Source: an uncultured Caldilineaceae bacterium
GTDB lineage: Bacteria; Chloroflexota; Anaerolineae; 4572-78; J111
Assembly (NCBI GenBank): GCA_964612485.1
Contig: CAZTFF010000018.1
Location: forward strand, 12,598-76,597
Direction of reading: 5' to 3'
Length of the DNA: 64,000 nt
Below, piece by piece: positions 20,157 to 32,139 of this stretch. The position numbers and the translations under genes are program-made. Under the pieces are notes generated by a model. The model saw only the letters and a program-made list of their open reading frames with translations. It made no database searches and was not told where the DNA came from. Position 1 is the stretch's first letter; every line of letters starts with the position of its first letter.

Positions 20157-20528
20157 TCAAACGGATGCAGCATCTGTTTTCTTTGCTTGACTGCATATAA
20201 ACAAATCAGATTTTTTCAGCAGGTACAGCAACGTTTTTTCAATATTTTGGTAAGATGCTGTGCGGATGGGCTGCCGGGCGATGATGACTACATCAAACCC
20301 CGGTTTGATCTCCGGCAAGTGTAACCGGGCGGCCTCTCGCATGCGCCGTTTGATTTTATTACGCTCAACCGCTTTGCCTAATCGTTTGCTAACCACAAAC
20401 CCAAAGCGGCTGTGATCCAGTTCATTCCGAAGAAACGCCAGCACCATTAAGGGGCTGGCGTGAAATTTTCCATATTGCCGCACCTGCTGAAAATCTTTGT
20501 TGCGGCGTAATCGATATTTGCGCCTCAT
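20157..20528 (-). CDS. rnpA: Ribonuclease P protein component
   Basis: RLRRNKDFQQVRQYGK..., the RNR-like motif KAVERNKIKRRMREA, and the conserved position downstream of rpmH. Confidence 0.9.
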   Translation of the reverse strand: MRRKYRLRRNKDFQQVRQYGKFHASPLMVLAFLRNELDHSRFGFVVSKRLGKAVERNKIKRRMREAARLHLPEIKPGFDVVIIARQPIRTASYQNIEKTLLYLLKKSDLFICSQAKKTDAASV

Positions 20529-20579
20529 TCACTCGTCAACAACTTTGGCCCGCTACCCTTTCGTTACTCAGTCCGCGTT

Positions 20580-20744
20580 CCAGTTGGTGCGTTTCGGATG
20601 GCGGCGCTGGGTGGCTAATGATTGACGGCCCCGCGCGCGGCGCGATTTGAGTACTTTTTTGCCTCCACGCGTAGCCATTCGGGCGCGAAAACCATGAACG
20701 CGTGATCGGCGTCGTCGTTTGGGTTGATAGGTCCTTTTCGGCAT
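20580..20744 (-). CDS. rpmH: 50S ribosomal protein L34
   Basis: Not in the ORF track because it is under 60 aa. My codon-by-codon translation gives [54 protein letters not shown] (54 aa), with stop TGA at 20580-20582. Confidence 0.92.
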
Positions 20745-20786: not shown

Positions 20787-20816
20787 ATTATACCTTACAA
20801 CCCTGGTGATTGGCAA
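20787..20816 (-). promoter_or_regulatory. Sigma-70-type promoter for rpmH-rnpA-yidD-yidC-jag
   Basis: On the minus strand: TTGCCA (20816-20811), an 18-nt spacer, then TATAAT (20792-20787), about 40 nt upstream of the rpmH ATG. Confidence 0.55.
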
Positions 20817-20878
20817 AAAAGCCCCGGATAGATGCCGTTTCTGAGAGGGATGTTTATTATATTTTTGTTACAAAAAAC

Positions 20879-20987
20879 GTATCTTCTCAATATTTTGGGG
20901 GAACGAGGTCTGAGCCTGTCGAAGACCGTTGGTTTCGACAAGCTCAACCAGCTCAACCAACTCAGCCCCAGATTATTGAGGAGGTAC
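20879..20987 (+). mobile_element. MITE-like element, copy 1 (109 nt) with imperfect ~23-nt TIRs and a perfect 8-bp TSD
   Basis: CAAAAAAC at 20871-20878 is repeated at 20988-20995. The ends gtatcttctcaatattttggggg and gtacctcctcaataatctggggc (reverse complement) match at 18 of 23 positions. A near-identical copy sits inverted at 31938-32037. Confidence 0.75.
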
Positions 20988-20988
20988 C

Positions 20989-21018
20989 AAAAAACCCCCA
21001 ATTTTTGGGGTTTTTTTT
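20989..21018. terminator. Bidirectional intrinsic terminator (A6-stem-T8)
   Basis: aaaaaac then ccccaa ttt ttgggg then tttttttt. The stem pairs 20996-21001 with 21005-21010, flanked by an A tract and a T tract. Confidence 0.6.
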
Positions 21019-21044
21019 ATGGAAAAGTTTGCTATACTAAGAAG

Positions 21045-21140
21045 CATAAGAGTGATTTAGTTTTTAGTGTTTTAGTTTTATTTTTCCTCCTCCTCCTTTC
21101 ATTGCCCCCGGGTGCTGCCCCCACCCGGGGGACTTTTTTG
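21045..21140 (+). ncRNA. Candidate small RNA (~95 nt): orphan extended -10 promoter plus U-rich body with CCUCCUCCUCC plus strong intrinsic terminator
   Basis: TGCTATACT lies at 21030-21038. There is no plausible ORF. The tract cctcctcctcc is at 21086-21097. A perfect 10-bp stem pairs cccccgggtg (21105-21114) with cacccggggg (21122-21131), followed by acttttttgttt. The 5' end is inferred, not observed. Confidence 0.4.
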
Positions 21141-21141
21141 T

Positions 21142-24100
21142 TTAAAAGCCGGTTTCCGGCAGCAGCGTCGGCCAGTTGGCCGGTACAGGAGTCTCCGGCA
21201 CAATCAGATCATTTTGATACCGAGGCAGCATGCGGTATTCATCCCGCGATGTTATGCCATCCTCTGAATATTGGCTGACAATGCCTACCACGGTCACGGT
21301 CGTGCCGCGTTCGATGAAGGGTTTGCGAATGCCGGTCCGCTGCCGGATGTACACTTTGGCCGGGTCGGTGCCGTCATCCACCCACATCGTTGCCCGGCCT
21401 TTGAAATCGACCGCCTGCCCCTGGATCATCACCAGCATGCCTTCGTATGGTTCCAGGATGGAGGTTGTCGCCACCGGCAGCGGCGGCGGGGGCGAGCCGG
21501 ATTCTACACATTTCACATCGCTCCGTTCGTTTACTTTTATCTCCAACTCTTCGTGGTAATTTTTAAGATAACCTTCCACTTCCACGGTATCGCCCAGATT
21601 GCAGATTTTATGATCTTTGGGCAAGTAGATCAAAATTCCCGAAGTTTCATCTTGAATGTACATTGTCCGGCTGCCCAGCAAGCCCGGCGGCGCGGTAACC
21701 TGCCCTTCGACCCGCACCCACGCGTCCAGCGTCAACTGTTTCGCCTCAAAAATACTGACTTTGAGCGGGCCGGACGCTTCTTTTTTCCAATTTTTCCTGT
21801 TGGGGGAAGGGCCGCAATCTTCACTCCAGGAAGTTTGTCCATCCGGCAGCCGGCACCAGGTTTCATCATAACCGGGCGAGTGGGTGTAAGTAAAGGTGTC
21901 TACCACGGTTCCGTTGGGATGGATCAACGATACCGTATCGCCATCATTGTTCAGAGAGAAGCCGGTTTGGGCCTGGTAAAAGGTGATGAATCCGCGGGCG
22001 GGAATGATGGTATCGAGCGGAATGGTGTAGCTCAAGTTGGAATTGTCCGTTAAACGCCAGCCGCCGAGACCTACCGGTTGATCCAAAAGGTTGTACAGTT
22101 CCACCCATTCGTCGGTGTGATCCGGCATTCCGTTGCCGTCCCAATCCCAATCGTAGGGGGCGGGCAGAATCTCGTTGATGGTGATGGGATCAGGCGAAGC
22201 TTCACCCGTAATCCAAATGGGGGCGCTATAGGCGGTGTCGCCATCGGCCTGGATGGCTTTAACCCAGAAAAAGTGGCCGGGCCGGGCGGTCACGGTGGTT
22301 GACCATTGCCCCGGGTTTGTGTCAAAGGGTACGGTCGCCAGCGGTAAATTGCCGTCGTAGAGCCATACCGTCACCGCTTCGGAGTCGGCGTCCGTCACAT
22401 CGATTGTCAGCGTTATGCGGCCGGTGGTGGTTATCACGCTGCCCATCCAATGGTTGTTCAGGCGCAGGGCCAGGGCCAGGTTGCTGTCTTCTGTGGCAAA
22501 AACACGCCGGGCGCGCATGGCGTCCAGAAGATCGGGTTGGGTCAGCGCCGGAGCCACAATGCCGGTTCGTGTGGCCGAGTCGCTTCCCCAGTGAGCCGTA
22601 TGGATGTCGCTGTTGTTGGTGGGGGCTACAGCCCATCCCATCATATTGCTCTGAATAAAGGCCGATTCGTAGGTGAGGTAGTCCCTGGCGTTGTTCCCGA
22701 TTTCTTGTAGCGTGATGATAGGAAATGCTTGGCTGTTGAAGGGAAAACTCTCAAAATCCCCATCATAATTGATACCGGGGTGGTTAAGTTGGGCGATGGT
22801 GTCGGGCTGCGTGGCCAGCCAGTCGTACATCTTGGTAAGGGTATCGAATTGGGGATCTTCCCGGCTCAAGAGGGCAGCGTTGTTGAAGATATTGATGTGG
22901 CCCTCGGTGCGGTGCGTCCATTCCACCCCCCGCAGCGCGACAAATTGGCCGGCTTCGGTGGCCTGGTTGGTTTGGGTCAGGGTTTGATTCCATTCGTGTA
23001 GTGATAAACTATGCCCATGGTCGGTAATGGCAAAAAAGTGATGCCCGGCGGCGCGGGCCAGTGCCAGGGCGTAATAGGGCGGCCCGGCCCCGTCGGAGTA
23101 AGAGGTGTGGGCGTGAAGATCACCCCAGTAGGCGTGCATGCCGTCCGGCAAATCGGCGGGGGGTGGGGCAGTGACCGGGGCAGGGGATGGAGGAATGGTG
23201 GGAACGCCGGGGTTGGGCCCAGCCCGAACGAAATCATAGGGCATAGAATTTGTATCAACGGGCCAGATGCGTTGCAGGCTGTGAGGTTCCGGTGCGGAGG
23301 CATCCGGCTCCAGATTGAGAATCTCATAATCGCCGTTGCGGTAGGCCACGCTGTCTAAAATTTCGTCGTTGGGGCCTAAAACGATCAACTCGTCGCCGTT
23401 GTTGGAGAGCGCCCAATTGCCGCTGCTCCAGGTTGTATATTTGTTTAGGGTGGGAATGGCGGGATCGCTCTCGATGATTTCATAATCTGGCCACTCGTCA
23501 AATCGAGCAAAAAAGTCGCTGCCGCTCTTGGCAATCACCAGGCAGTCATCGGGGGCCAGGATGATGCCGCCGGGCAGGCTGTACATCCCTTCACCGCCGC
23601 CGTTTGTTTCCTCATCACCTATTTTGTAGCCGGCGAGATCAAGCGGGGCGGAATTTGGGTTGCAAATTTCGATATATTCGTCGCCTTCGGTAGACGAGGC
23701 CGTTCCATCGTAGACAAATTCACTGATGAGAAGCGGATCGGGTGATGGCGGCGGCGCGATGGTAGTAAAGGTGAAACTGTGGTTTGCGTTGAGAGGGTCG
23801 GGACTGCCATCCTGGTCCACAACGCCGGTGGCCGGGATTACGACCGTACACGTGGTTTGATAAGGCAGGTTCGCCGCCGGGGTGAGGGCAAACGCGGTGG
23901 CTGTGATTGTAGGGGTCATATTGAAGGGAACCGGCGCGCCGGCGGGGCATTCAATAGCAAGGGCGGCGGCGCTGACGCTGACCATTTCGCTGAATTGCAG
24001 CGTAATGGAGGTATTAACAGGCACATCAATGGCCGTATCGACCGGGTTGGTAGCGGTTACGGTGGGCGGATTGTCGGGCGGGAGGCAGGAGCCGAACGGC

Positions 24101-31883: not shown

Positions 31884-31937
31884 GCCCTTACTCTAATTTT
31901 ATAAGATTATTGTTGTGCGTAATTTAGACCTTTGAGA

Positions 31938-32037
31938 ATACCGTCTCAATAATTTGGGGCAGAGTTGGTTGAGCTTGTCGAAACCAACGGTCTTCGACAG
32001 GCTCAGACCTCGTTCCCCCGAAATATTGAGATGATAC
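31938..32037 (-). mobile_element. MITE-like element, copy 2 (100 nt, inverted relative to copy 1) with a 7/8 TSD
   Basis: The reverse complement aligns almost base for base with 20879-20987, apart from a 9-nt gctcaacca duplication in copy 1. It is flanked by CTTTGAGA (31930-31937) and CTTTGAGG (32038-32045). Confidence 0.75.
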
Positions 32038-32139
32038 CTTTGAGGTTTATAAATCGGTTTTGTATGAAAGTTGACTTGGCAAACCAGAAAAATTCTACAA
32101 AAAGTTAATTTAGAAATCTCAAAGGCCTTTGGGCGCCAA

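Follow-up and report, generated by a model that had tools for sequence, protein, structure and literature searches.

Bacterial MITEs such as the Correia elements, RUP and MITEAba12 are short, non-coding elements that carry terminal inverted repeats (TIRs), are bounded by target-site duplications (TSDs) of fixed length, fold into a strong hairpin, occur as many dispersed and mostly intergenic copies, and have an insertion sequence as a partner (PMC10969869). A text search of this 2024 review of prokaryotic MITEs (PMC10969869) for "IS66" and "Chloroflex" returned neither term. The ISBst12 group of the IS66 family is represented here by ISBst12 and by ISDge4 from Deinococcus geothermalis, the latter of which has a single open reading frame (ORF), a TIR that reads GTGACTACTCAGCA and an 8-bp direct repeat, and whose transposition has been observed experimentally (PMC12898284).

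Here we describe a short repeated element of an uncultured Caldilineaceae bacterium that resembles the bacterial MITEs in all of the properties listed above, yet differs from them in that its core bears no relation to the partner insertion sequence, of which it is not a deletion remnant. The element is very probably a MITE with the ends of single-ORF IS66-family (ISBst12-group) insertion sequences, likely moved in trans. It shares with these partner insertion sequences their ends and the length of their TSD and, unlike the members of the ISBst12 group, is devoid of any ORF. As such, it adds a well-supported MITE case from a poorly studied branch of the IS66 family, the single-ORF (ISBst12) branch.

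Results and Discussion

Anatomy of the element upstream of rpmH

The window, by which we mean the whole 64-kb stretch of DNA that was analysed, corresponds to contig C18:12598-76597 of assembly G000, which comprises 6.17 Mb in 161 contigs and is 96.8% complete. The preliminary description placed a 109-nt element between perfect 8-bp direct repeats, with imperfect TIRs around a core hairpin, and all of these features are read in the sequence at the coordinates collected in Table 1. The left TIR, GTATCTTCTCAATATTTTGGGGG, and the reverse complement of the right end, GTACCTCCTCAATAATCTGGGGC, are identical at 18 of 23 positions, as had been claimed, and the right TIR closes with ...CCCCAGATTATTGAGA(A/T)GATAC, the same end as is found in intact insertion sequences. 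The length of 109 nt holds for this copy (copy 1) but not as the norm of the family, for which 100 nt is usual; the additional 9 nt of copy 1 stem from a tandem duplication of GCTCAACCA within the element, and when one of the two units is left out, its identity to the 100-nt family consensus is 97%. As RNA, copy 1 is predicted to fold at -50.1 kcal/mol (z = -6.3). Its coding capacity is none, and only spurious read-through ORFs cross it. These ORFs (window 20832-21278 (+) and similar ones) would yield peptides such as ...LSLSKTVGFDKLNQLNQ..., which gene callers may list as hypothetical proteins, and knowledge of the MITE keeps such read-through "proteins" across hairpins out of gene calls.

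An inverted second copy had also been reported in the window, and it is confirmed with a length of 100 nt. Repeat detection in the window recovers copies 1 and 2 as the inverted repeats I1/I2, which are 95% and 86% complementary. Copy 2 is absent from the orthologous intergenic regions of two genomes of the same genus, G001 and G002; these regions are much shorter, and they are too short, divergent and non-aligning to provide a clean empty site for this copy.

Table 1. Coordinates of the two MITE copies in the window and of the features that surround them.
Feature	Position in window	Strand	Remarks
rnpA	20157-20528	-	
rpmH	20568-20744	-	
Promoter-like site upstream of rpmH, TTGCCA-18-TATAAT, 11/12	20787-20816	-	region conserved in G001 and G002
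TSD, left copy, CAAAAAAC	20871-20878	.	read directly in the sequence
MITE copy 1	20879-20987	+	109 nt, consensus orientation
Left TIR of copy 1, GTATCTTCTCAATATTTTGGGGG	20879-20901	+	
Core hairpin of copy 1, GAGCCTGTCGAAGACC-GTT-GGTTTCGACAAGCTC	20912-20945	+	
Copy-1-specific tandem duplication of GCTCAACCA	20942-20959 (units 20942-20950 and 20951-20959)	+	alignment of 127 copies
Right TIR of copy 1, GCCCCAGATTATTGAGGAGGTAC	20965-20987	+	
TSD, right copy, CAAAAAAC; minus-strand T-tract GTTTTTTG of the adjoining hairpin	20988-20995	.	
Hairpin CCCCAATTTTTGGGG with T8	20996-21018 (hairpin 20996-21010)	.	terminator-like on both strands, predates the insertion
Flank of copy 2, CTTTGAGA (TSD copy)	31930-31937	.	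7/8 match to CTTTGAGG
MITE copy 2, 100 nt	31938-32037	-	96% identity to consensus
Flank of copy 2, CTTTGAGG	32038-32045	.	7/8 match to CTTTGAGA

An empty site and the fate of the terminator

Copy 1 lies between a terminator-like hairpin and the promoter-like site of rpmH, about 63 nt upstream of the -35 hexamer of the latter. In-silico excision of the element together with one repeat yields ...GTTACAAAAAAC|CCCCAATTTTTGGGGTTTTTTTT, in which a consensus scan calls a terminator-like hairpin on both strands. The scan thereby bears out two statements of the preliminary description, namely that removal of the element restores a bidirectional terminator and that the insertion occurred in the A-tract flank of this terminator, upstream of the rpmH promoter. 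Genomes G001 and G002 are syntenic at this locus, with flanking genes that are only ~72-75% identical. At the orthologous site of G002, ...CTTCAAAAAACCCCCAAAAATTGGGGTTTTC, a single CAAAAAAC stands directly before the same hairpin and the element is absent, such that an empty site of the kind looked for in relatives exists with one target copy and is clean at one locus, that of copy 1. The orthologous site of G001, ...TCAAAAACCCCCAAAAATTGGGGTTTTC, has CAAAAAC before the hairpin and likewise no element. The CCCCAA...TTGGGG hairpin is kept in both genomes, and the hairpin with ~100 nt to its right is better conserved than the neighbouring genes, while to the left of the empty site the same-genus sequence does not align. 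From the TSDs and this one empty site, we infer that the element has been mobile.

What did the insertion do to the terminator? Since CAAAAAAC was duplicated, the hairpin keeps a T-tract on both strands: the minus-strand GTTTTTTG abuts it, and the plus-strand T8 is untouched. The terminator and the rpmH promoter are left intact and no strong biological consequence is expected, and the insertion was probably near-neutral. The element is clean but ordinary selfish DNA. An inserted copy would add a stable hairpin to any read-through transcript. In addition, both TIRs carry an outward-facing TTGAGA hexamer 6 nt from the tip, and a -10-like hexamer follows TTGAGA after 16-18 nt at 17.5% of the ends, as compared to 6.5-8.8% in shifted controls. 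In the window, a scan reports TTGAGA-18-AAAAAT (9/12) directed towards rpmH, and TTGAGA could conceivably serve as the -35-like part of an outward promoter towards this gene.

Terminator targeting was considered as a rule for the whole family and was rejected, as a terminator tail lies over the TSD at 5 of 91 reconstructed empty sites, versus an expectation of 1.5 derived from the same 8-mers elsewhere. The placement of copy 1 reflects a preference for AT-rich targets, not terminator targeting.

The hairpin itself lies between the rpmH promoter and a candidate small-RNA unit that is accompanied by a giant gene. On the side of the latter unit, window 21030-21140 (+), between the hairpin and the next terminator (21105-21131), is better conserved in G001 and G002 than the flanking genes, harbours CCTCCTCCTCC and is closed by a strong plus-strand terminator, a pattern that would be compatible with a small RNA.

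A genome-wide MITE family with locus-specific target-site duplications

A BLASTN search of the whole genome with the element returned 169 family loci, which are spread across many contigs in both orientations. Full-length copies with usable flanks account for 127 of these loci and are nearly all 99-100 nt long. The family consensus of 100 nt is GTATCTTCTCAATATTTCGGGGGAACGAGGTCTGAGCCTGTCGAAGACCGTTGGTTTCGACAAGCTCAACCAACTCTGCCCCAGATTATTGAGAAGGTAC, with TIRs of 22-23 nt (GTATCTTCTCAATATTTCGGGG versus GTACCTTCTCAATAATCTGGGG, the reverse complement of the right end; 18/22 matching), and GTATC... and ...GGTAC are the precise points at which similarity from copy to copy ends. The copies have a median identity of 96% to this consensus, with 45 of the 127 reaching 97% or more. 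Perfect 8-bp TSDs flank 72 of the 127 full-length copies, where 0.5 would be expected by chance when left flanks are paired with the right flanks of other copies, and 92 of the 127 match at 7 or more of the 8 positions. Each of the eight TSD positions matches in 81-87% of the copies. The octamers are specific to each locus and AT-rich (29% GC versus 54% for the genome), with T disfavoured at the first position and A at the last. About a quarter of the full-length copies are without a good TSD, which may reflect decay or misplaced alignment ends. Neither flank falls within an ORF of at least 120 aa for 59 of 130 copies, though such ORFs cover 90% of the genome. These are the hallmarks of a transposed, mostly intergenic MITE family.

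If the window is viewed in isolation, its two copies could be taken for a local segmental or inverted duplication in which the flanking repeats arose by chance, as only two copies lie within these 64 kb. The genome-wide census refutes this explanation, which we consider vanishingly improbable: the 169 loci lie on many contigs with differing flanks and TSDs, and similarity stops exactly at the TIR ends. Because the TSDs differ by locus, the flanking repeats are not part of a segmental duplication. The two outcomes that the preliminary description had named as fatal to a MITE, namely a family of only two copies lacking TSDs at other loci, or flanking repeats belonging to a longer segmental duplication, are both contradicted by the copy number and by the 72 perfect TSDs.

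The repeat makes up roughly 0.3% of the genome, and its consensus, boundaries, TSD rule and partner group are now given. The family (169 loci of ~100 nt) breaks several contigs, and the result aids the annotation and assembly of Chloroflexota MAGs.

The ends match single-ORF insertion sequences of the IS66 family

Which transposase recognizes these ends? The trail to the partner began at a solo TIR on another contig of the same assembly (C98:5372-5387), into which a preceding ORF of 120 codons extends. Relatives of this C98 peptide adjoin the same type of end in another genus; G003 reads ...CCCCGGATTATTGAAAAGATAC, and G018 holds a frameshifted full-length transposase gene. A protein search with the G003 fragment gave thousands of matches, the best full-length ones being 545-555 aa long and typically residing on contigs of 1.8-2.3 kb. 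Three full-length homologues, of 548-549 aa, pass the Pfam model PF03050 (DDE_Tnp_IS66) with 48.6, 45.3 and 44.2 bits (cut-off 23.1), and in addition these three have a coiled-coil or bZIP-like stretch at the N-terminus. The 120-aa C98 remnant and the pieces of the G018 pseudogene gave no Pfam match, and it is only the full-length homologues that reach the IS66 model.

The insertion sequences on metagenome contigs have a left end of GTATC(A/T)TCTCAAT...GG and a right end of ...CCCCAG(A/T)TTATTGAGA(A/T)GATAC, and one copy is flanked by a perfect 8-bp TSD, AATTCGTG. A search of genome contigs with a single transposase query found nothing, but an alignment of 27 homologues did: scanning with the resulting profile, one genome per species, gave 273 relatives, of which 80, all in named genomes, were kept. 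Most of these 80 loci belong to Chloroflexota MAGs (Anaerolineales, Ardenticatenales, Thermoflexales and Candidatus Amarolinea aalborgensis), and some come from bins labelled as other phyla. Both TIRs are present, 1.72-1.86 kb apart, at 49 of the 80 loci, and a perfect 8-bp TSD is seen in 18 of these 49 insertion sequences, including all four copies of Candidatus Amarolinea aalborgensis. On short contigs, assemblers can join the flanks of different copies; most of the 18 insertion sequences with perfect TSDs lie on long contigs and most failures on short ones. The partner insertion sequences are 1.72-1.86 kb long and are nearly filled by one 1.6-kb ORF that encodes a transposase of ~548 aa, and within them no accessory tnpA/tnpB genes were found.

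At one such locus (L037) the right TIR, GTATCTTCTCAATATTTCGGGGGAAA, equals the left end of the family-consensus MITE at 25 of 26 positions. The autonomous partner that the preliminary description had envisaged, an insertion sequence with matching TIRs and 8-bp TSDs, is of this single-ORF IS66-family type. One ORF, a DDE domain of the IS66 type, 8-bp duplications and an end of the form GTA...CTCA... together agree with an assignment of the partner to the ISBst12 group of the IS66 family. Like ISBst12 and ISDge4, it has a single ORF that passes DDE_Tnp_IS66, a TIR that starts with GTA/GTG...CTCA, and 8-bp repeats (PMC12898284). It differs from ISDge4 in that its transposase is ~548 aa long, with a weak match to PF03050 (44-49 bits), as compared to 449 aa, and in that the TIR is GTATCTTCTCAATA here and GTGACTACTCAGCA in ISDge4, which agree at 9 of 14 positions by eye.

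Several insertion sequence families produce 8-bp TSDs, and the assembly contains no IS66 transposase. For these two reasons one could suppose that the MITE is moved by another family with 8-bp TSDs, such as ISL3, IS256, IS1595 or IS6, and that the likeness of its ends to the IS66 type is coincidental. However, the likeness extends over 22-26 nt, with up to 25 of 26 positions matching, the sole coding remnant adjacent to a TIR is the C-terminus of an IS66-type transposase, and within 6 kb of the solo ends no inverted TIR pair was found outside the MITEs. We regard a mobilizer from another family as very unlikely.

We hypothesize that the family moved and spread as follows. An ISBst12-group transposase supplied in trans most likely binds both ends of the MITE and would cut 8 bp apart in an AT-rich target, and repair of the gaps would produce the 8-bp duplication. 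Expansion to ~170 copies would have followed the split from the two sampled species of the same genus, and copy 1 would have landed at CAAAAAAC, the A-tract directly before a conserved terminator-like hairpin. The source of transposase would by now be lost or unassembled, with the C98 remnant left behind.

The source of transposase in this genome

Is the transposase still present? The preliminary description stated that the window contains none, which is correct, and a tblastn search with three full-length transposases extends the statement to the whole assembly but for a single match at C98:5050-5355, which covers residues 447-549 with 79-89% identity. This remnant is a C-terminal transposase piece of ~100 codons with its TIR (C98:5017-5387). 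A search of the whole genome with PF03050 gave no match. A genome-wide search up to 6 kb from every solo TIR-like end revealed no inverted TIR pair outside the MITE copies, and 30 further genomes from the same taxonomic family yielded no intact transposase, only the pseudogenes of G003 and G018. With only the C98 remnant, an empty PF03050 search and relatives that hold nothing but pseudogenes, the family looks orphaned. As the assembly has no intact transposase, mobilization is not tied to a resident enzyme.

Multi-copy insertion sequences of such size often drop out of fragmented MAG assemblies. The family might accordingly still be active, with an intact partner that is present in the organism but was left unassembled or unbinned. 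This is a serious possibility, if one to which we would give less than an even chance. It is favored by the 45 of 127 copies that lie at or above 97% identity to the consensus, by the existence of close full-length metagenome transposases (P0060 is 89% identical to the C98 remnant) and by the typical occurrence of the partner insertion sequences on orphan contigs of 1.8-2.3 kb. Against continued activity stands the lack of an intact copy in G000 and in the 30 same-family genomes, of which G003 and G018 have pseudogenes.

Two further observations were made around solo TIR-like ends. A solo TIR of the MITE type on contig C15 (76261-76276) adjoins a Tn5-like IS4-family transposase gene (G000 C15:74271-75542; L012 4271-5542; 423 aa, PF14706 and PF01609, probably truncated). 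This transposase was considered as the partner and rejected, being of the Tn5-like IS4 type (PF14706/PF01609) and unrelated to the TIR; at this site, one mobile element may have inserted into another. Two identical weak TIR-like matches, 10,822 bp apart, occur both on C10:102876-113713 and on C66:15690-26527, which suggests that a segment of at least 11 kb is duplicated or was assembled twice.

Distribution and families with the same ends

Of 40 relatives searched, G023 has clear full-length MITE copies (37 matches, 79-87% identity) and represents the one other genus with such copies; in a few further genera the matches are weaker or partial. The same-genus genomes G001 and G002 have almost no copies. 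MITEs with the same ends and a different core are present in G002, G006 and G012, where the 8-bp TSDs match at 8/8, 8/8 and 7/8 positions, respectively. Several non-autonomous families with the same ends are as expected if one transposase type serves all of them. In G002, one member of such a second family (C171:578-672; L010) has the same 22-nt ends around the core TAGGGACAGAATATTATTCTGTCCCTA and a perfect TSD, CCAAATTC. A degenerate relative of the TAGGGACAGAATATTATTCTGTCCCTA-core MITE lies in G000 around position 31040 of C51.

The core hairpin and its 24-nt word

The core of the MITE has no counterpart inside any of the sampled partner insertion sequences. Similarity is confined to the ends, which rules out that the MITE is an internal-deletion derivative; as judged by this comparison of sequences, it is a MITE of the "TIRs plus foreign core" type. 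In this genome the core hairpin motif occurs 123 times inside MITE copies and 0 times outside them. The core holds a 24-nt word, GTTGGTT-TCGACARGCTC-AACCAAC (core-word form GTTGGTTTCGACARGCTCAACCAAC), and an exact 19-mer from it has 116 occurrences here, always inside the MITE. Of 150 other genomes sampled across the class, a single one contains this 19-mer, namely G175, which belongs to another family of the same class and has it 30 times. At these 30 sites (for example L133, L136 and L148), GTTGGTT-TCGACAGGCTC-AACCAAC stands without TIRs as a small hairpin. Over 25 copies its stem is extended by locus-specific palindromes of 0-13 further pairs, which amount to 95 Watson-Crick and 4 G-T pairs over the 25 loci. 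No Rfam family scores above gathering for the G175 hairpins.

The hairpin-forming core raises the question of whether the element could instead be a REP-like palindrome, dispersed by the action of a Y1 (RAYT) transposase, or a structured RNA gene selected in many copies. In support of this reading, the RNA of the consensus is predicted to fold very stably (-49.2 kcal/mol, z = -7.1), and other genomes contain the 24-nt core word in the absence of TIRs. However, the element has locus-specific 8-bp TSDs and 22-nt TIRs shared with insertion sequences, whereas REPs have neither; its copies lie in both orientations; and no Rfam family reaches the gathering score for it. REP/RAYT palindromes are short, imperfect and TSD-less, with a tetranucleotide head and a Y1 transposase, and the TSDs and long TIRs present here do not conform to this description. 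We therefore place very little credence in either a REP-like palindrome or an RNA gene and retain the interpretation as a MITE. A Phe_leader match (38.9 bits, gathering 55) that spans the element and the terminator was dismissed as an artefact of a hairpin followed by a terminator.

A longer form of the hairpin, GAGCYTGTCGAAGG...TTCGACAAGCTCAACCAAC, is found in unrelated repeats of G012, G018, G019 and G025 (L005, L006, L009 and L116-L125). The repeats that hold it are of several types and are without ends of the IS66 type, and with them the word extends, in its longer hairpin forms, to at least four additional genera.

The core looks like a putative module common to several repeat families. 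The MITE core might be more than filler, namely a copy of a self-standing palindromic DNA module that the element has captured, a conjecture we consider rather unlikely to be right. If it were true, a small hairpin module would move between repeat families and lineages, and it would either extend its palindrome by a DNA-level process or be a binding site for a protein of the host or of a mobile element. Finally, three G000 copies, at C1:142713-142811, C10:56111-56209 and C14:87739-87837, have a core whose apical segment is inverted relative to the TIRs (GAGCTTGTCGAAACCAACGGTCTTCGACA...), and these inverted apical cores, along with the stem extensions of G175, fit template switching at hairpins at the level of DNA.
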